Assembly: GCF_003334405.1 (NCBI RefSeq)
Contig: NZ_QOWM01000012.1
DNA length: 64,000 bases
Reading direction: 5' to 3' (one strand)
Source of the DNA: Escherichia coli
Lineage (GTDB): Bacteria; Pseudomonadota; Gammaproteobacteria; Enterobacterales; Enterobacteriaceae
Below, in pieces: positions 25,829 through 38,109 of the stretch; position 1 is the stretch's first letter, and each line of letters starts with the position of its first letter. The notes beneath the pieces are model-generated. The model was not told the origin of the DNA, made no database searches, and saw only the letters and a list, made by a program, of their open reading frames with translations. Made by a program: the position numbers and the translations under genes.

Positions 25829-25841
25829 CTTATTGATTTAA

Positions 25842-25917
25842 ATGGTGCCGATAATAGGAGTCGAACCTACGACCTTCGCATTACGAATGCGCTGCTCTAC
25901 CAACTGAGCTATATCGG
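25842..25917 (-). tRNA. thrW: tRNA-Thr (anticodon CGU)
   Basis: Minus-strand read GCCGATATAGCTCAGTTGGTAGAGCAGCGCATTCGTAATGCGAAGGTCGTAGGTTCGACTCCTATTATCGGCACCA; coordinates +/-1. Confidence 0.9.
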
Positions 25918-26032
25918 CCCTGAAAGGACATGTTCACGAACGTGAATCACGGTGGACAAGGTTAAAACTAACCGGGCGATGCGTCAATGGCCTTGTGAAT
26001 CAAATGGCTACTTTTGCATCACCCGGTTTTAT

Positions 26033-27286
26033 TTACGCACGAATGGTGTAATCACCAATGCCGATCCACTTGTAAGTGGTCAGTGCTTCCAGCCCCATTG
26101 GGCCACGCGCGTGGAGTTTTTGTGTGCTTACCGCCACTTCCGCACCCAGACCAAACTGGCCGCCGTCGGTAAAACGCGTAGAGGCGTTAACGTAAACAGC
26201 GGACGAATCCACTTCGTTAACAAAACGCTGGGCGTTGCGCATATCGCGGGTCAGGATCGCATCGGAGTGTTGTGTGCCGTGTTCACGAATATGGGCGATG
26301 GCATCGTCAAGATCGCTGACGATTTTGACGTTCAAATCTAATGACAGAAACTCATCGTCATACTCTTCGGCTTTAACAGCAACCACCTTCGCAGGGCCTG
26401 CCTGCAACTGCGCCAGTGCAGCTGCATCTGCGTGTAATGTCACGCCGCTTTCCGCCATTTGTTTGCTTAATGCGGGCAGGAAGCTATCGGCGATGTTTTT
26501 ATTCACCAGCAACGTTTCAACCGTATTACATGTGCTCGGACGCTGAGTTTTCGCGTTGACGATCACTTTTAATGCTTCAGCGATCTCTACACTTTCATCA
26601 ACGTAAATATGGCATACGCCTATACCACCTGTGATCACCGGGATTGTCGACTGTTCACGGCACAGTTTATGCAAACCAGCGCCACCACGCGGGATCAGCA
26701 TGTCGATGTATTTATCCATACGCAGCATTTCACTGACCAGCGCACGGTCAGGATTATCAATCGCCTGCACGGCACCCGCCGGTAAGCCGCAGGATTTCAG
26801 GGCGTCCTGAATCACCGCCACCGTTGCAGCGTTAGTGCGACACGTTTCTTTGCCACCGCGCAGGATCACCGCATTACCGGTTTTCAGGCACAGCGAAGCG
26901 ACATCAACCGTCACGTTCGGGCGCGCTTCATAAATCACGCCAATAACCCCCAGCGGTACGCGACGACGCTCAAGACGCAGGCCGCTGTCCAGTACGCCGC
27001 CATCGATTACCTGCCCCACCGGATCGGCGAGGTTGCACACCTGACGTACATCGTCGGCAATGCCTTTCAGCCGTGCGGGCGTCAGTGCCAGACGGTCAAG
27101 CATCGCTTCGCTAAGGCCATTGGCTCGCGCGTCAGCAACATCCTGGGCGTTAGCGTTGAGGATGATTTCGCTTTGTGCTTCCAGTTCATCGGCGATTTTT
27201 TCCAGCACGCGATTTTTTTCGCGGCTGGAGAGTTGCGCTAATTTATACGAGGCTTGCTTCGCGGCAATGCCCATTTGTTCCAGCAT
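26033..27286 (-). CDS. proA: Gamma-glutamyl phosphate reductase
   Basis: 417-aa ORF with the conserved ProA sequence. Confidence 0.95.
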
Positions 27287-27297
27287 CAGCCTGCTCC

Positions 27298-28401
27298 TTA
27301 ACGGGTAATCATGTCATCACGGTGAACGGCAACCGGGCCGTATTCATATCCCAGTATTGCATCAATTTCTTGCGAGTGGTGTCCGGCAATACGGCGTAAT
27401 GCATCGCTGTTGTAACGACTGACGCCGTGGGCGATATCGCGGCCTTCGAGGTTGCAAATGCGGATGACTTCACCACGCGAGAAATTGCCAGTCACGCTTT
27501 TAATGCCTTTCGGCAACAGGGAGCTGCCGCGTTCCAGAATGGCGGCAGTTGCCCCTTCATCTACCGTGATTTCACCCGCCGGCGGCGCACCGAAAATCCA
27601 GCGTTTACGGTTTTCAAGCGGAGTCGCCTGGGCATGGAACAGCGTACCGACGGAAATGCCTTCCATCACATCACCAATAACGCCCGGCTTGCTGCCCGCG
27701 GCAATAATGGTGTCGATACCCGCACGGCAAGCCACGTCAGCGGCCTGCAATTTGGTACTCATGCCGCCAGTTCCGAGGCCTGAAACGCTGTCACCGGCAA
27801 TCGCGCGCAGTGCGTCATCAATGCCGTAAACATCTTTAATCAGTTCTGCCTGCGGATTGCTGCGCGGGTCAGCGGTATACAAACCTTTTTGATCGGTCAG
27901 CAGCAACAGTTTATCGGCACCCGCAAGAATCGCCGCCAGCGCAGAAAGGTTATCGTTATCGCCGACCTTAATCTCTGCCGTAGCGACAGCATCGTTCTCA
28001 TTGATTACCGGAACGATATTGTTATCGAGCAACGCTCGCAGGGTGTCGCGGGCGTTCAGGAAGCGTTCACGGTCTTCCATATCAGCACGGGTCAGCAGCA
28101 TTTGCCCGACGTGAATGCCATAAATCGAAAACAGCTGTTCCCACAGTTGAATCAGTCGACTCTGCCCTACCGCCGCCAGCAGTTGTTTCGAGGCGATGGT
28201 CGCTGGCAGTTCCGGGTAACCCAGGTGCTCACGTCCGGCGGCGATCGCGCCCGACGTCACAATAACAATCCGATGCCCGGCGGCATGTAACTGCGCGCAC
28301 TGGCGAACAAGTTCAACGATATGGGCACGGTTCAGACGGCGCGATCCGCCTGTTAGCACACTGGTGCCGAGTTTTACCACCAGCGTCTGGCTGTCACTCA
28401 T
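27298..28401 (-). CDS. proB: Glutamate 5-kinase
   Basis: ORF track gives a 396-aa form from 28488; the conserved ProB start is [12 protein letters not shown] at ~28401. Confidence 0.9.
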
Positions 28402-28589
28402 GATTCTCTGCCATTCAATTTTAGGAAAAATGATATCAAACGAACGTTTTAGCAGGACTGTCGTCGGTTGCCAACCATCTGCGAGCAAAGCATGGCGTTT
28501 TGTTGCGCGGGATCAGCAAGCCTAGCGGCAGTTGTTTACGCTTTTATTACAGATTTAATAAATTACCACATTTTAAGAATATTATTAAT

Positions 28590-28615
28590 CTGTAATATAT
28601 CTTTAACAATCTCAG
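28590..28615 (+). promoter_or_regulatory. Pho box (PhoB binding site) of the phoE promoter
   Basis: ctgtaatatatctttaacaatctcag upstream of phoE. Confidence 0.5.
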
Positions 28616-28688
28616 GTTAAAAACTTTCCTGTTTTCAACGGGACTCTCCCGCTGAATATTCGCGCGTTAATTAAAATCAGGAATGAAA

Positions 28689-29744
28689 ATGAAAAAGAGC
28701 ACTCTGGCATTAGTGGTGATGGGCATTGTGGCATCTGCATCTGTACAGGCTGCAGAAATATATAATAAAGACGGTAATAAACTGGATGTCTATGGCAAAG
28801 TTAAAGCCATGCATTATATGAGTGATAACGCCAGTAAAGATGGCGACCAGAGTTATATCCGTTTTGGTTTTAAAGGCGAAACACAAATTAACGATCAACT
28901 GACTGGTTATGGTCGTTGGGAAGCAGAGTTTGCCGGTAATAAAGCAGAGAGTGATACTGCACAGCAAAAAACGCGTCTCGCTTTTGCCGGGTTGAAATAT
29001 AAAGATTTGGGTTCTTTCGATTATGGTCGTAACCTGGGGGCGTTGTATGACGTGGAAGCCTGGACCGATATGTTCCCGGAATTTGGTGGCGATTCCTCGG
29101 CGCAGACCGACAACTTTATGACCAAACGCGCCAGCGGTCTGGCGACGTATCGGAACACCGACTTCTTCGGCGTTATCGATGGCCTGAACTTAACCCTGCA
29201 ATATCAAGGGAAAAACGAAAACCGCGACGTTAAAAAGCAAAACGGCGATGGCTTCGGCACGTCATTGACATATGACTTTGGCGGCAGCGATTTCGCCATT
29301 AGTGGGGCCTATACCAACTCAGATCGCACCAACGAGCAGAACCTGCAAAGCCGTGGCACAGGCAAGCGTGCAGAAGCATGGGCAACAGGTCTGAAATACG
29401 ATGCCAATAATATTTATCTGGCAACTTTCTATTCTGAAACACGCAAAATGACGCCAATAACTGGCGGCTTTGCCAATAAGACACAGAACTTTGAAGCGGT
29501 CGCTCAATACCAGTTTGACTTTGGTCTGCGTCCATCGCTGGGTTATGTCTTATCGAAAGGGAAAGATATTGAAGGTATCGGTGATGAAGATCTGGTCAAT
29601 TATATCGACGTCGGTGCTACGTATTATTTCAACAAAAATATGTCAGCGTTTGTTGATTATAAAATCAACCAACTGGATAGCGATAACAAATTGAATATTA
29701 ATAATGATGATATTGTCGCGGTTGGCATGACGTATCAGTTTTAA
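28689..29744 (+). CDS. phoE: Outer membrane phosphoporin PhoE
   Basis: Signal peptide [21 protein letters not shown], porin body and C-terminal F; the ORF track begins two codons earlier at 28683. Confidence 0.9.
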
Positions 29745-29749
29745 TGAAT

Positions 29750-29776
29750 ATTGCCGGATGTGATGCATCCGGCACA
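29750..29776. terminator. Bidirectional hairpin terminator between phoE and crl
   Basis: gccggatgtgatgcatccggc palindrome. Confidence 0.5.
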
Positions 29777-29782
29777 TTTCAC

Positions 29783-30241
<459 letters not shown>

Positions 30242-31486
30242 TTAACACAAGCGTTTTTCGATCCAGTCGGTGATTTCCTGAAGACCTTTGTCAAAATTCC
30301 GATACACCGGGTTAAATGGGATCTCTAATAATTTACCGTCAGCAGATGATGAGGTGATTAAGCGTGAGTCCTCTTCCGGGCTGAACGGATCGTTCTTCCA
30401 GTAGCCTGATAACATTGGCGTTGGGCAGCGACGTCCCAGCAATCCTTGCACTTTTAATGAATAGCGATTCAGCTCCACGCGCAACGCTTCATCGGAAGCA
30501 TCATGCATCCCCAAACGACTGGCCAGAACGTCAAGATACATTTCCGGCACCTGTTGCTGGCACTTAAAATCACTCAACAGGGTATGAACTACCGGACCAA
30601 GACAGGCAACCGCTTTCAGACGCGGCGATTCAAGGTATGCCAGACGCACGGCAACGTTAGCGCCGAAACGGAAACCAAAGGCCGCGACGCGAGTGTGATC
30701 CACCCACGGTACGTTAGGCAGCGCCTTTAAGACGTGCTGATGCAACAGGCTGGAGTCCTGGGTGAGCTTCCATTTTGAAGAAAAGCCCACCGACGGCATA
30801 TCAATAGTCAGCATCGCAATGCCGCGCGGCGCAAAATAACGTTCATACAGGCTGTAATAGTCCGTCTGCATCGCATCCAGACCACCACACATTAATACCG
30901 TCGGGAACGGGCCATCGCCTTTCGGCATATGCAAAAAGCCGGTGATGGGCGCACCGCCGGGTACGGTAAACTCCATCTGCCGCATCGTGCCCGGTAGACG
31001 CTGAGCGGCCTCTTCATAGGCGCGGTTTGACAAAGCCTGCGCTTGCTCGGCCAGGTCATCTCCTTTCAGATGAGGATAGGCGGCAATGTTGTACAACGTA
31101 GCCGCATGCAGCCAGTGACGACCACTGAGTTGCGGATCGTCTTCCGCACAGGCTTTTTGTTGCCACACCATCGCCTGGGTGGCCCACTCATAAATCCAGT
31201 TGCCGCCACGGTAGCCAATCACCGTATCGTATAAATCATCGTCGGTACGTTCGGCATCGCTCATCACAATACGTGCCTGGACGTCGAGGATTTCGCGTGG
31301 GTCAATGCCGCGCCAGATCCACATCAGACGGTTAATCATGCGATACCAGTGAGGGATGGTTTTACCATCAAGGGCCGACTGCACAGGCGGTTGTGCGCCG
31401 TGATTAAAGCGGCGGACTAGCGTCGAGGTTTCAGGATGTTTAAAGCGGGGTTTGAACAGGGTTTCGCTCAGGTTTGCCTGTGTCAT
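30242..31486 (-). CDS. frsA: Esterase FrsA
   Basis: 414-aa alpha/beta hydrolase ORF matching FrsA. Confidence 0.9.
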
Positions 31487-31577
31487 GGATGCAGCCTCCA
31501 GAATACTTACTGGAAACTATTGTAACCCGCCTGAAGTTAAAAAGAACAACGCCCGGCAGTGCCAGGCGTTGAAAAGA

Positions 31578-32036
31578 TTAGCGACCGGAGATTGGCGGGA
31601 CGAATACGACGCCCATATCCCACGGCTGTTCAATCCAGGTATCTTGCGGGATATCAACAACATAGTCATCAACCAGCGGACGACCAGCCGGTTTTGCGAA
31701 GATGGTGACAAAGTGCGCTTTTGGATACATTTCACGAATCGCAACCGCAGTACCACCGGTATCCACCAGGTCATCAATAACGATGAAGCCTTCGCCATCG
31801 CCTTCTGCGCGTTTCAGCACTTTAAGCTCGCGCTGGTTGTCGTGATCGTAGCTGGAAATACAAACGGTATCGACATGACGAATACCCAGTTCACGCGCCA
31901 GTAACGCACCCGGTACCAGACCGCCACGGCTTACGGCAATAATGCCTTTCCATTGTTCAGAAGGCATCAGTCGGCTTGCGAGTTTACGTGCATGGATCTG
32001 CAACATGTCCCAGGTGACGATGTATTTTTCGCTCAT
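31578..32036 (-). CDS. gpt: Xanthine-guanine phosphoribosyltransferase
   Basis: 152-aa [26 protein letters not shown]... Confidence 0.95.
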
Positions 32037-32296
32037 GTGAAGTGTCCCAGCCTGTTTATCTACGGCTTAAAAAGTGTTCGAGGGGAAAATAGGTTGCGCG
32101 AGATTATAGAGATCTGGCGCACTAAAAACCAGTATTTCACATGAGTCCGCGTCTTTTTACGCACTGCCTCTCCCTGACGCGGGATAAAGTGGTATTCTCA
32201 AACATATCTCGCAAGCCTGTCTTGTGTTGACAACATTTTCTGCTAACCCTGTGACCTGCAATACTGTTTTGCGGGTGATCGACAAGGAGACTTAAC

Positions 32297-33754
32297 GTGT
32301 CTGAACTGTCTCAATTATCTCCACAGCCGCTGTGGGATATTTTTGCCAAAATCTGTTCTATTCCTCACCCGTCCTATCATGAAGAGCAACTCGCTGAATA
32401 CATTGTTGGTTGGGCAAAAGAGAAAGGTTTCCATGTCGAACGCGATCAGGTAGGTAATATCCTGATTCGTAAACCTGCTACCGCAGGTATGGAAAATCGT
32501 AAACCGGTCGTCTTACAGGCCCACCTCGATATGGTGCCGCAGAAAAATAACGACACCGTGCATGACTTCACGAAAGATCCTATCCAGCCTTATATTGATG
32601 GCGAATGGGTTAAAGCGCGCGGCACCACGCTGGGTGCGGATAACGGCATTGGTATGGCCTCTGCGCTGGCGGTTCTGGCTGACGAAAACGTGGTTCACGG
32701 CCCGCTGGAAGTGCTGCTGACCATGACCGAAGAAGCCGGTATGGACGGTGCGTTCGGCTTACAGGGCAACTGGTTGCAGGCTGATATTCTGATTAACACC
32801 GACTCCGAAGAAGAAGGTGAAATCTACATGGGTTGTGCGGGGGGTATCGACTTCACCTCCAACCTGCATTTAGATCGTGAAGCGGTTCCAGCTGGTTTTG
32901 AAACCTTCAAGTTAACCTTAAAAGGTCTGAAAGGCGGTCACTCCGGCGGGGAAATCCACGTTGGGCTGGGTAATGCCAACAAACTGCTGGTGCGCTTCCT
33001 GGCGGGTCATGCGGAAGAACTGGATCTGCGCCTTATCGATTTCAACGGCGGCACACTGCGTAACGCCATCCCGCGTGAAGCCTTTGCGACCATTGCTGTC
33101 GCAGCTGATAAAGTCGACGTCCTGAAATCTCTGGTGAATACCTATCAGGAGATCCTGAAAAACGAGCTGGCAGAAAAAGAGAAAAATCTGGCCTTATTGC
33201 TGGACTCTGTAGCGAACGATAAAGCTGCCCTGATTGCGAAATCTCGCGATACCTTTATTCGTCTGCTGAACGCCACCCCGAACGGTGTGATTCGTAACTC
33301 CGATGTAGCCAAAGGTGTGGTTGAAACCTCCCTGAACGTCGGTGTGGTGACCATGACTGACAATAACGTAGAAATTCACTGCCTGATCCGTTCACTGATC
33401 GACAGCGGTAAAGACTACGTGGTGAGCATGCTGGATTCGCTGGGTAAACTGGCTGGCGCGAAAACCGAAGCGAAAGGCGCATATCCTGGCTGGCAGCCGG
33501 ACGCTAATTCTCCGGTGATGCATCTGGTACGTGAAACCTATCAGCGCCTGTTCAACAAGACGCCGAACATCCAGATTATCCACGCGGGCCTGGAATGTGG
33601 TCTGTTCAAAAAACCGTATCCGGAAATGGACATGGTTTCTATCGGGCCAACTATCACCGGTCCACACTCTCCGGATGAGCAAGTTCACATCGAAAGCGTA
33701 GGTCATTACTGGACACTGCTGACTGAACTGCTGAAAGAAATTCCGGCGAAGTAA
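32297..33754 (+). CDS. pepD: Cytosol nonspecific dipeptidase
   Basis: 485-aa M20-family ORF matching PepD. Confidence 0.95.
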   Translation: MSELSQLSPQPLWDIFAKICSIPHPSYHEEQLAEYIVGWAKEKGFHVERDQVGNILIRKPATAGMENRKPVVLQAHLDMVPQKNNDTVHDFTKDPIQPYIDGEWVKARGTTLGADNGIGMASALAVLADENVVHGPLEVLLTMTEEAGMDGAFGLQGNWLQADILINTDSEEEGEIYMGCAGGIDFTSNLHLDREAVPAGFETFKLTLKGLKGGHSGGEIHVGLGNANKLLVRFLAGHAEELDLRLIDFNGGTLRNAIPREAFATIAVAADKVDVLKSLVNTYQEILKNELAEKEKNLALLLDSVANDKAALIAKSRDTFIRLLNATPNGVIRNSDVAKGVVETSLNVGVVTMTDNNVEIHCLIRSLIDSGKDYVVSMLDSLGKLAGAKTEAKGAYPGWQPDANSPVMHLVRETYQRLFNKTPNIQIIHAGLECGLFKKPYPEMDMVSIGPTITGPHSPDEQVHIESVGHYWTLLTELLKEIPAK

Positions 33755-33810
33755 TTATTTGATTTGCTGCCGGATGGCGTTTAATCGCCTTCCGGCAGTT
33801 TCATCCTTCA

Positions 33811-34368
33811 TTATCCTTCGATAAAAGCCATCCCTGTAAATGTCCGTCGCGGGTTGCCACGTTCAATCTGGTGATGGAACATTCGCCGCTGCGATTTCAG
33901 CGCCGCGCTATTTTCCTGTTGCTGTTGCTCCAGCTTCCAGGCAATCAGCAATCGTGCCAGCCGCTTGTTAGCATGCTGACTACGCTCTGACTGAACCTTC
34001 ACGCTAATACCGGATGCCAAATGCGTGGCGCGTACCGCCGAGTCGGTTTTATTGACATGTTGACCGCCCGGCCCCGACGAACGCAGCGTCTCATAACGGA
34101 TTGCATCCGATTGTTCCTGCTCATCAGCGGTAAAACGCCCAATGCCCAGAAACCAGTTTTTGCGCCCATGATGAGGCCGATACGGACTCGGACAAATCCA
34201 CTGAATAGTGCCACACCAGCTTTCGCTTAATGCCCATGCGTTATCGCCATCGAGAGAAACCAGCGCCGAACGCAGTGTGTCAGAGTAGCGGCCCGTTTCT
34301 GTTTCCAGCACCGTTACCGCGACGTCTTGCCGGGTAAAAACGACCAACAGAGAAGAACGCTGCGCCAA
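33811..34368 (-). pseudogene. prfH: Release factor homolog PrfH, 5'-truncated
   Basis: Retains GGQ motif [16 protein letters not shown] but lacks the native N-terminus; abuts the rtcB fragment. Confidence 0.7.
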
Positions 34369-34546
34369 TCGGGTAGCCGCGTCCGGGGTGTAAATCTGGC
34401 ATCCCCACTACGCGCTGCATGTTGGGTAAATTTGCCGTGGTGTGTAATTGTTGGATCGCTAAACTCTCGATCCACAGGTCATCAGATGCGATGGTAAATA
34501 CCGCATCGGATAAGGGACGAATATATTTGCCCATGTACCATTCCAT
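34280..34546 (-). pseudogene. RtcB-family RNA ligase N-terminal fragment (ykfJ-like)
   Basis: 88-aa ORF with [18 protein letters not shown], the RtcB N-terminal motif, then loss of frame into prfH. Confidence 0.55.
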
Positions 34547-34851
34547 TTATACTCGTCATACTTCAAGTTGCATGTACTGCGACTGCGTTCGTTCACCCCA
34601 GTCACTTACTTATGTAAGCTCCTGGCGATTCACTCGCTTGTCGCCTTCCTGCAACTCGAATTATTTAGAGTATATAAATATAAAAATCAGGAAATGGCAG
34701 ACGAATCCAGGGCAAGAAAAAAAGAATTAATCCTGGAAAGGTCTGCAAAGAGTCATTGATAAAGGATTTGTCATGATTTACCTCCTTGCAGTTTGTGGAA
34801 TCAGAAAACGCGCACATACCAGGCGGGCGTTATTTTCATTGCAAGCTGGAT

Positions 34852-35304
34852 TTAATGTTGCGGTTTATATCGCATATAAAAATTAGTAAACCACGCTCCC
34901 CGGCATTCAACGCGCTGCTGCTTAACTGTCTGAAAACCATAACGTTCAAAAAAGGGTTTTGCGGTTATGCTTGCGTCCACCGTAAGTTCGGATTCAGACT
35001 TAATCAAAGGTTTTAACAAAGCGCTGGCAACCCCACGGCGGGTGTATTCAGGGTCAACAAATAACATATCGATATAATGTTCAATGCGGGAAATAAAACC
35101 AACCGGTTGTGCATTAATGATCGCAACCCACACTTGTGATTTCGCGAGTTTCTCCTTCCAGCGAGATTCGTCAATCTGCGCCCAGGCGGAAATTTGTTGT
35201 GGTGAATAATGCTGACTGGCGGTCATCGTAACCGCTCTAATGAAAATAGCGCATAGTTGCTGAAAATCGCCAGGCTGATAGTTTCTTATTTGTATGTTAT
35301 TCAT
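34852..35304 (-). CDS. yafP: GNAT acetyltransferase YafP
   Basis: 150-aa ORF, last gene of the dinB-yafNOP operon. Confidence 0.85.
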   Translation of the reverse strand: MNNIQIRNYQPGDFQQLCAIFIRAVTMTASQHYSPQQISAWAQIDESRWKEKLAKSQVWVAIINAQPVGFISRIEHYIDMLFVDPEYTRRGVASALLKPLIKSESELTVDASITAKPFFERYGFQTVKQQRVECRGAWFTNFYMRYKPQH

Positions 35305-35313
35305 AATATAAAT

Positions 35314-35712
35314 TCAAAAACGCATGCGAAACGCTTCTGCCATTTTCCCAATTTTATGCATTTGGTTGTTATCTCGAGCCAGTTTATGAGGTTCAGGTTT
35401 CAGAATGGCAATGAGCAACCATGCTTGCTCATCAAACGCCCCCTGACAATATACCAAATGCGCTTCGTCATTCGTTCTGCTGAATTGGCGCAACTGTGGC
35501 GGAAATGGATTATTCTCATTTGCCAGATGAATATGAGCAACTCGCTCAAATTTGATTAATGGCCAGGTAAAGGAGTCGTCGTAGAGTGCATCGCGACCAA
35601 ATATATCTGGCAAAACACCGTCACGCTTATAGGAAATAAAATCCGCCGTTAACGCATCAAGTTCCTCTGCTGTAAGTTGCAGGCGAATAAGTTTTGTTTT
35701 GAATACCCGCAT
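35314..35712 (-). CDS. yafO: Toxin YafO
   Basis: 132-aa ORF in the conserved position. Confidence 0.85.
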   Translation of the reverse strand: MRVFKTKLIRLQLTAEELDALTADFISYKRDGVLPDIFGRDALYDDSFTWPLIKFERVAHIHLANENNPFPPQLRQFSRTNDEAHLVYCQGAFDEQAWLLIAILKPEPHKLARDNNQMHKIGKMAEAFRMRF

Positions 35713-35714
35713 CC

Positions 35715-36008
35715 TTATTCCTTAAAGTCATTGAAATCATCATCCGTCATATCATTAAGATATTGTTCAGCGCGGCGTGTAATTTCCTCTAATCTTGCAG
35801 CACTTGGACGGAAGCGCGCCTTTATGGGCTTTTTCTCCTCTTGTTCAGCAAGCATGTCCATTAACGCTTCGAATGCGCTGGCACTTAAGAGATATCCTGC
35901 GGGGCGATTATTAGAAAGAACCGCAACCGGTTGATCAATAAAGTATTTAGCTGGGTTTTTACGTAACTCAGTGATATTGACCGATTTTTCAGCGAGAATT
36001 CGATGCAT
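35715..36008 (-). CDS. yafN: Antitoxin YafN
   Basis: 97-aa ORF upstream of yafO. Confidence 0.85.
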   Translation of the reverse strand: MHRILAEKSVNITELRKNPAKYFIDQPVAVLSNNRPAGYLLSASAFEALMDMLAEQEEKKPIKARFRPSAARLEEITRRAEQYLNDMTDDDFNDFKE

Positions 36009-36059
36009 ACAGTGATACCCTCATAATAATGCACACCAGAATATACATAATAGTATACA

Positions 36060-37115
36060 TCATAATCCCAGCACCAGTTGTCTTTCCATTTGCGGGTCAA
36101 GCAACGTCACATGCAGCCCCACCAGACGCACACCGCGCCCGCCGCGGCGTTCATCCCAGGTTTTACGCGCGGTGGCGATTAGATCAGCTTTATTCAGCCG
36201 CGGCCAGACGTGCTCCTGGGTGGTTTGCTGAAAATCGTCGAACTTTAATTTCACCCCCTGGCGAGCAATCAGTAAATCAGGTTTTACCTTTGCCAGACGG
36301 CGTTCAAGTTCCGGATACAGCCGCTCGATAATCGCTTCACATTCAGACCAGTGATGAATATCTTCCGCCATCGTGCGTTCCACGCCGACGGATTTTCGCA
36401 ACCGTTCGCTGTTAACATCGCGTTCGTCAATCCCCTGACTACGCTCCCACAAAATGCGGCCAAATTTGCCAAAGCGTTTAAGCAGCATCACCAGATCACA
36501 CTTTTGTACATCACCGCAGGTCCGCAGCCCCATCGCTTCCAGTTTTGCCGCTGAGACTTTGCCGACGCCGGGGATTTTTGCCAGCGGTAAGGTTTGTAAA
36601 AATGCCGGAACTTCTGCCGGCGTAATCACAAACTGGCCGTTGGGTTTATTCATGTCGGAGGCGATTTTGGCGAGAAACTTTACTGGTGCCACGCCCGCAG
36701 ACGCCGTCAGTTGCAGCTCGTTGAAGATTGTCTGGCGGATTTCCTGGGCGATGAGGGTCGCAGAACCGTGGCAATGGACGCTATCGGTGACATCGAGATA
36801 AGCCTCATCCAGTGACAACGGTTCAATGCGCGAGGTGTAGCGCGAGAAGATTTCACGGATATGATTTGAGGCTTCTTTGTAGGCGTCAAAGCGCCCCGGA
36901 AGCAAGGTGAGATGTGGGCATAATTTGAGCGCCATCCCTGTCGGCATAGCGCTACGTACGCCAAATTTACGCGCGGGATAATTGGCGGTGCTGATCACCC
37001 CCCGACGTTCGCGGCTGCCGCCAATAGCAATAGGGATATCGCGCAGGGCGGGATTGTCGCGCATCTCCACTGCGGCGAAAAAGCAGTCCATATCCACATG
37101 AATGATTTTACGCAT
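36060..37115 (-). CDS. dinB: DNA polymerase IV
   Basis: 351-aa Y-family polymerase [29 protein letters not shown]... Confidence 0.95.
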
Positions 37116-37129
37116 TGCTCACCTCTCAA

Positions 37130-37149
37130 CACTGGTAAAGTATACAGTG
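37130..37149. promoter_or_regulatory. LexA (SOS) box of dinB
   Basis: cactggtaaagtatacagtg, i.e. CTGT-N8-ACAG, just upstream of the dinB start. Confidence 0.7.
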
Positions 37150-37185
37150 ATTTCAGGGTTTGAGAAATGCGTAAAGATTCAGCAT

Positions 37186-38109
37186 TTAACGCGTTCGCTG
37201 CGAAAGCACCTGCTGCTTATCCAGCTTTTGCACCAGCGGCTGCACCACTTTATCCCCATGCTGACCAAAGTATTGATACAGCGTATCGGACGCACTTTTG
37301 GTCAGCACCATAATCTCAATGCGCCGGTTGCCCGCGCTTTGCGGATTTTTGGAATCCAGCAGCATCTGGTCCGCCATTGCGCTTACCTGCATCACTTTAT
37401 CTTCCGGCATTCCGGCCTCTTCCAGCACCCGACGAGCCGAAAGCGCGCGGTCACCCGAAAGGTTCCAGTTGTTGTAGATATTGTTTTTGTAGGCCATCGC
37501 ATCGGTATGCCCGGTAATAATAATTTTATTATCGAGCGAGTCGAACACTGGCGCGAGCTCCACCAGCAGCGTTTTAAAGAACGGCATAATCTTCGCGCTG
37601 CCGCGTTCAAACATATTGCGGTTCTGGTCGTCTTTAATCAGCACGCGTAATCCCTGGGGAACAATCTCCATCTCCAGATTCGCTTCCATATGCGCATCAC
37701 GGGCAATGGTGTTGATACTGGTTGCCAGCTCACCAAGCTCGGTGGCGGATTTCTTCTTCAGCAGCGCCGTTTTCTCATTCACATCACGCGCTTTTTTCTC
37801 CGTCTCTTCCGGCACCGCCACGGTGGCAGGTTTTGGCGGATGAGACGGGCTGATTTTATTTAACGGCGACAGCCCACCACCGTTAAAAATCGACTGCCCG
37901 TGCAGCGCGGCGATAATGCTTTCACGCTCGGATTTACTGACGCTGTTGACAATCCACAGCGTCATAAACAGCGCCATCATTGCCAAAGTAAAGTCGGCGA
38001 ACGCCACCTTCCACGCCCCGCCGTGGTGCCCGGCATGATTCTTTTTGATCTGCCGCCGGACGATGGTGGTTTTTGCCCCACGATCGCGGCGGTTACCCGT
38101 CTTTCTCAT
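37186..38109 (-). CDS. lafU: Lateral flagellar stator protein, MotB-like
   Basis: OmpA-like C-terminal domain (NRRIEIMV); the ORF track extends to 38142, probable start MRKTGN at ~38109. Confidence 0.8.
   Translation of the reverse strand: MRKTGNRRDRGAKTTIVRRQIKKNHAGHHGGAWKVAFADFTLAMMALFMTLWIVNSVSKSERESIIAALHGQSIFNGGGLSPLNKISPSHPPKPATVAVPEETEKKARDVNEKTALLKKKSATELGELATSINTIARDAHMEANLEMEIVPQGLRVLIKDDQNRNMFERGSAKIMPFFKTLLVELAPVFDSLDNKIIITGHTDAMAYKNNIYNNWNLSGDRALSARRVLEEAGMPEDKVMQVSAMADQMLLDSKNPQSAGNRRIEIMVLTKSASDTLYQYFGQHGDKVVQPLVQKLDKQQVLSQRTR

Follow-up and report, generated by a model that had tools for sequence, protein, structure and literature searches.

The rescue and repair of ribosomes that have been cut in the decoding centre is the task of the rtcB2-prfH operon, in which release factor H (PrfH) enters the A site of ribosomes that colicin E3 or CdiA-CT has cleaved between A1493 and G1494 of the 16S rRNA, and frees the nascent peptide via its GGQ motif, whereupon the RNA ligase RtcB2 religates the 16S rRNA (Tian et al., 2022, PMC9304027). 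The Escherichia coli DNA analysed here (contig NZ_QOWM01000012.1; the whole stretch of 64,000 nucleotides is referred to as the window) contains a short RtcB-like and a longer PrfH-like reading frame at the corresponding place, which raises the question of whether any part of this system is still at work or whether the two frames are what a deletion has left of it. A preliminary description, made from the window's own letters, had favoured a deletion as the cause of the loss of most of rtcB and of the prfH start, and this is borne out by the alignment to intact loci and agrees with the published accounts of the locus (PMC1586002, PMC9304027, PMC9223846). We conclude with high confidence that the locus is a pseudogene pair, namely the K-12 ykfJ'-prfH' allele, which was left from an rtcB2-prfH operon by one deletion of 1,027 bp.

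Two truncated reading frames and their surroundings

Both the list of open reading frames (ORFs) and the raw sequence contain two minus-strand ORFs at 33811-34546, as described before; their coordinates, and those of the features around them, are collected in Table 1.

Table 1. Features of the ykfJ'-prfH' locus and its flanks (window coordinates)
Feature	Position	Strand	Remarks
pepD	32297..33754	+	flank of the remnant
pepD-prfH convergent intergenic spacer	33755..33810		GC-rich hairpin GCTGCCGGATGGCG...CGCCTTCCGGCAG, read directly from the sequence
185-aa ORF	33811..34368	-	TTG start; GGQ at ORF codons 101-103 (34060-34068)
prfH' remnant	33811..34336	-	PrfH residues 31/32-204 and stop TAA (33811-33813)
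88-aa ORF	34280..34546	-	ATG start; 4 extra N-terminal codons (MEWY), RtcB2 residues 1-69, 15-aa out-of-frame tail
rtcB2 N-terminal fragment (K-12 ykfJ')	34328..34534	-	codons 1-69 of 379
Deletion junction	34328..34336		one surviving copy of an imperfect 9-bp direct repeat
Upstream extension of the prfH frame	34337..34368	-	out-of-frame rtcB DNA, no PrfH sequence; reaches up to TTG 34368
ERIC/IRU-type repeat	34548..34680		~130 bp, long hairpin between yafP stop and ykfJ' start; not part of the operon
yafP-yafO-yafN-dinB	34852..37115	-	other flank of the remnant

In searches with the NCBIfam models, the 185-aa ORF was matched by TIGR03072 (release_prfH) with an E-value of 5.8e-83 and 277.3 bits (cut-off 166.65), the match being limited to positions 31-200 of the 200 positions of the profile, while weaker matches were obtained for RF2 (E=3e-26), RF1 (E=2e-22), and ArfB (E=3e-8). 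The 88-aa ORF was matched by NF007153 (RtcB family; E=7.7e-31) over only positions 1-69 of 379, and it falls short of the cut-offs for full-length RtcB2 in both models concerned (NF007153, 107.4 versus 407 bits; TIGR03073 release_rtcB, 101.1 versus 271.8 bits). Both family matches are far above chance. The annotation by PGAP is of the same kind, with 33811-34317 labelled as 'peptide chain release factor H, incomplete, missing N-terminus' and the rtcB2 fragment as 'RtcB family protein, incomplete, missing C-terminus'. Several plus-strand ORFs (34021..34230, 34419..34730, and others) were rejected as mechanical, as they lie antisense to recognised homologous coding sequence.

An 88-aa N-terminal RtcB fragment had been described, and such an ORF indeed exists, but only 69 of its residues are RtcB2 sequence and the last 15 are read-through into prfH. 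The last RtcB2 residue is A69, and the Asp-x-x-Cys metal-binding motif (LVGNDIGCG) would have followed immediately; by alignment to the RtcB structures 2epg and 4dwr, NDIGCG starts at residue 73 of intact RtcB2, four residues past the breakpoint. The metal-binding Asp/Cys motif is therefore deleted, as are all catalytic histidines including H294, the residue that was mutated in EcRtcB2 (PMC9304027), and no catalytically competent RtcB2 is encoded. The 185-aa truncated prfH with its GGQ motif was likewise recovered, in that the frame is open and the motif present, but its first 11-12 codons are out-of-frame rtcB DNA and homology to PrfH begins at T31/R32. The GGQ of the remnant corresponds to residues 120-122 of PrfH, of which Q122 is the catalytic residue mutated by Tian et al. 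(PMC9304027). Full-length E. coli PrfH, as solved on the damaged ribosome (7SA4), has 204 aa, and a complete protein of about this length with its own start is not encoded by the window, the ATG and the first ~30 residues being deleted.

The spacer between pepD and prfH received no terminator call in the promoter/terminator scan. On the other side of the pair, the ERIC-like repeat folds with -55.3 kcal/mol (z=-8.7) and is matched over its full length by the Rfam family V_AS5 (34552-34675, minus strand) with 46.5 bits, which is below the gathering score of 96; it matches the ERIC2 primer sequence with one mismatch. The repeat is present in full in K-12, O157, and strain L006, as a 58-bp short form in L002, L005, and L007, and is absent from L003. 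The yafN-yafO toxin-antitoxin pair is present in the window (35314-36008), whereas, of the strains compared (L002, L003, L006, L015, and L018), several lack it and have dinB directly overlapping yafP. Its distribution does not follow that of the rtcB2-prfH deletion, since L006 has the deletion and lacks yafNO, and NC101 has an intact operon together with yafO. In some strains with an intact rtcB2-prfH (L016, L019, and L020) an extra 'metal-dependent hydrolase' gene lies directly downstream of prfH at the place of pepD, and the PrfH C-terminus reads …FVAV or …FIAV rather than …FIEG; the locus may exist here in a variant form, with the hydrolase as a third gene of the operon.

A deletion present in about half of the complete genomes

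The preliminary description had proposed an alignment with intact rtcB-prfH loci as a check, and when the window was aligned with 8 intact syntenic loci with matching flanks (EC01307, JCM5491, STEC309, NC101, E2348/69, and others), a single gap of 1,027 bp was obtained, flanked by a repeat. The order of genes in the intact loci is pepD, prfH (204 aa), rtcB2 (379 aa), and yafP, where rtcB2 and prfH are coupled by a 4-nt ATGA stop/start overlap. The deletion has removed RtcB2 residues 70-379, among them all metal-binding and guanylylation residues, the stop codon of rtcB2 with the prfH start that overlaps it, and the first ~30 residues of PrfH, so that the ATGA coupling to an intact rtcB2 is gone together with most of rtcB2. 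As 1,027 is not divisible by 3, the rtcB frame now reads 15 out-of-frame prfH codons and stops at TGA 34280-34282. The two genes are thus truncated relative to orthologues at the same position, their reading frame is disrupted, and further independent decay is found in the population (see below), all of which are marks of pseudogenes.

At the junction a 9-mer is found, TGCCGGGTA on the plus strand and TACCCGGCA on the coding strand. Intact alleles have two copies of this repeat, 1,027 bp apart, one in rtcB2 codons 67-69 (TA(C/T)CCGGCA) and the other at prfH codons 30-33 ((A/G)CCCGACA). A 9-bp repeat at the junction would be the expected signature of a microhomology-mediated deletion, and most likely the segment was lost between the repeats through slippage during replication or through illegitimate recombination.

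Among 5,426 complete E. coli genomes, a 121-bp probe across the junction was covered to at least 80% in 2,692, and a 1,001-bp probe from the interior of the deleted segment, again to at least 80%, in 2,675. The deletion is an old and common polymorphism, which divides the species into two almost equal halves. These counts also bear on the reading that the deletion is an artefact of assembly or sequencing, the true genome containing an intact rtcB-prfH. No point was found in favour of this reading, and its probability is virtually nil: the 2,692 complete genomes with the identical junction come from many laboratories and platforms and include K-12 MG1655, DH10B, and O157:H7, and the junction has repeatedly been described in the literature. 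The recovery of an intact rtcB on resequencing, which the preliminary description had named as the finding that would overturn the remnant, is effectively excluded by the identity of the junction in so many independently assembled genomes, and the remnant claim stands.

Whether the deletion arose once or several times is a different matter. The gap is identical, at 1,027 bp, in 11 of the 11 distinct carrier alleles that were aligned (the window, O157:H7, and nine others), and it is conceivable that the same deletion occurred repeatedly at the 9-bp repeat in different haplotypes. This would be in line with the three junction variants that are found in carriers (TACCCGGCA, TACCCGACA, and TATCCGGCA), in which each variable base is a state seen in the intact repeat copies, and with the divergence of the remnant alleles, which differ by up to ~4.5% on the prfH side and have 18 polymorphic sites in common with intact alleles. 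However, one and the same haplotype of 230 nt on the rtcB side is found in 9 of the 11 distinct carrier alleles and in none of the 6 intact alleles compared, and conversion tracts with their ends at the heterology boundary can account for the junction variants. Repeated origin is accordingly regarded as unlikely, and the shared rtcB-side haplotype favours a single origin of the deletion with recombination thereafter, as far as can be judged from the aligned alleles.

The remnant of this deletion has not remained unchanged. In L006 and L007 a second deletion of 169 bp, corresponding to 33977-34145 of the window and associated with a 4-bp GCAT microhomology, takes out the GGQ and causes a frameshift. 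When the 169-bp segment was itself searched for, it was missing from 670 of the 5,426 genomes; if all 670 are carriers, for which L006 and L007 are the only basis, about a quarter of the carriers would be devoid of the GGQ segment. An IS1 element lies between yafP and ykfJ' in one locus, and in one otherwise full-length locus prfH is interrupted by an IS3 and rtcB2 is frameshifted. Decay of the remnant continues in some lineages. Among the loci with an otherwise intact prfH, L018 (EPEC E2348/69) has a premature stop, R194*, by which the protein is 11 residues shorter.

Is anything still made from the remnant?

The pseudogene reading is countered by the state of the retained part of prfH, which is an unbroken frame of 173 codons with the GGQ intact, and by the low pairwise dN/dS between remnant alleles (0.03-0.17, with pS reaching up to 0.15 between the window, i.e., the K-12 allele, and O157), which could suggest constraint. 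Yet 18 of the variable sites in the 173 codons that remain are polymorphic among carriers and among intact alleles alike, which means that much of the variation predates the deletion or came by recombination, and constraint was therefore no longer read from the pairwise values. When only private variants are considered, the ratio of non-synonymous to synonymous changes is 5/8 in carriers and 9/26 in intact alleles, which leans toward relaxed selection but is not significant (Fisher p=0.48, with only 8 + 8 alleles). The private changes of carriers include S116P in the O157 lineage, four residues before the GGQ.

With respect to translation, the prfH frame offers only three possible starts upstream of the GGQ, namely TTG 34368, TTG 34347, and GTG 34311, for which the predicted pairing with the anti-Shine-Dalgarno sequence is -3.7, -1.5, and -3.0 kcal/mol, respectively; the first ATG of the frame is codon 163 and lies downstream of the GGQ. 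A promoter and terminator scan of 33700-34900, which is of little use for judging expression, returned no sigma-70-like promoter and two weak terminator-like sites on the plus strand, which are at chance level, and the only hit in an Rfam scan of the remnant was a chance-level match to the snoRNA sR28 (34164-34231; E=0.042), with 18.4 bits where the gathering score is 39. Translation of the 185-aa prfH frame from an internal start, as had been suggested, finds no support, given that only non-ATG starts with weak Shine-Dalgarno pairing are available and the ATGA coupling has been lost. Three further observations speak against it: knockouts of the remnant in BW25113 are without change toward colicin E3, a β-strand of domain 2 is missing, and the GGQ segment itself is gone in an estimated quarter of carriers.

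An N-terminally truncated PrfH could nevertheless still be made, either from one of the TTG/GTG starts or by re-initiation near 34280-34282, and retain some GGQ-dependent or ribosome-binding activity. The frame is, after all, open over 185 codons and unbroken in 9 of 11 distinct carrier alleles (the other two being those with the second deletion), the ykfJ-frame ORF overlaps it, so that ribosomes may reach the area, and ykfJ was differentially expressed, 2.45-fold up, in one RNA-seq paper. We consider such a product extremely unlikely, because, in addition to the weak starts and the loss of the native coupling to rtcB2, the missing ~30 N-terminal residues include a core β-strand of domain 2 (PMC1586002), O157 alleles carry P79L and S138T besides S116P, and even full-length PrfH gave no protection against colicin E3 when supplied alone (PMC9223846). 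Even less probable is that the 88-aa chimeric ORF encodes a new small protein with its own function. This ORF has an ATG start and an open frame, and the 230 nt on the rtcB side are almost invariant across carriers, but so little variation is what a deletion haplotype of single origin would show; moreover, the ORF lacks any catalytic element of RtcB, its 15-aa tail results by accident from reading prfH out of frame, and its start region has weak Shine-Dalgarno pairing (-2.5 to -3.3 kcal/mol) and is buried in the ERIC hairpin (-55 kcal/mol). Taken in a broader form, a hidden role of the locus might consist in low-level translation of the PrfH remnant or the YkfJ peptide with residual or new activity on the ribosome, or else the allele, at ~50%, might be held by balancing selection, for example if RtcB2-PrfH carries a cost where colicin E3 producers are lacking, with recurrent deletion; this, too, we hold to be very improbable. 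The reading of the locus as a pseudogene pair is hence retained.

Relation to the K-12 allele and to the intact operon

prfH was first found in K-12 (Pel et al., 1992, as cited in PMC1586002). Relative to CFT073, a deletion of ~1,000 nt was later described in the K12 strains MG1655 and W3110 as well as in O157:H7 Sakai and EDL933, both genes were termed pseudogenes, and it was pointed out that the product would lack a central β-strand of domain 2 (Baranov et al., 2006, PMC1586002). Both genes were also considered presumably inactive in K12 by Tian et al. (2022, PMC9304027). In vivo protection was demonstrated in ATCC 25922, whereas none was seen in BW25113, which is sensitive to colicin E3, and neither the single nor the double knockouts of its remnant genes changed this; the construct with full-length prfH alone was plasmid-borne (Maviza et al., 2022, PMC9223846). 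The remnant, its deletion, and the function of the intact operon are thus already known in all essentials. What is added here beyond these papers is the near 50/50 split in 5,426 genomes, the exact 9-bp junction with its three variants, and the frequent 169-bp deletion that removes the GGQ, which are incremental details of population genetics and not a new biological system.

The ykfJ'-prfH' pair of K-12 (b0236 region) is the closest known counterpart: 33755-34860 of the window is 100% identical to MG1655 and DH10B, and the junction, the flanks (pepD and yafP-yafO-yafN-dinB), and the annotation as pseudogenes are the same, so that the locus itself is without difference. Within the 7.1 kb around the remnant a single base, at 33196 inside pepD, differs from MG1655. 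The possibility that the window is K-12 itself was rejected, as only 25833-37957 aligns to MG1655 (99.96%, 5 mismatches); the best 24-kb match of the window is FDAARGOS_1337 (99.8%). Below 25833 the window contains a lambdoid prophage, with its integrase next to tRNA-Thr (thrW), in place of the CP4-6 of K-12, and beyond 37957 dinB is followed by a long Flag-2 cluster (lafU, motA, fliA-like, fliD, lafA, flgL…flgN), whereas K-12 has only lafU and a flhA' remnant at the Flag-2 site.

For practical purposes the allele is to be labelled as two pseudogenes, ykfJ' and prfH', of which neither is an RNA ligase or a release factor; ykfJ is still taken for 'the RNA ligase RtcB' in some expression work (PMC12871917). 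Since the 1,027-bp deletion leaves no ribosome-repair activity at the locus, the strain is predicted to be without RtcB2-PrfH protection against colicin E3 and would be expected to be sensitive to it; in general, a strain with the remnant allele is predicted to have lost this protection from ribotoxins of the colicin E3 type, which cut 16S rRNA.

The canonical RtcB of the rtcBA operon on the one hand, and RF1, RF2, and ArfB on the other, are homologous to the two fragments but belong to distinct paralogous families, and are widely outscored by the RtcB2-specific and PrfH-specific models. In comparison with the intact RtcB2-PrfH operon of the ATCC 25922/CFT073 type (PMC9304027, PMC9223846, PMC13166195), the remnant is without the 1,027 bp and has no ligase function, nor a release-factor function as tested in K-12, yet it occupies the same chromosomal site, its retained parts are 95-99% identical to the operon at the DNA level, and the GGQ with Q122 is kept.
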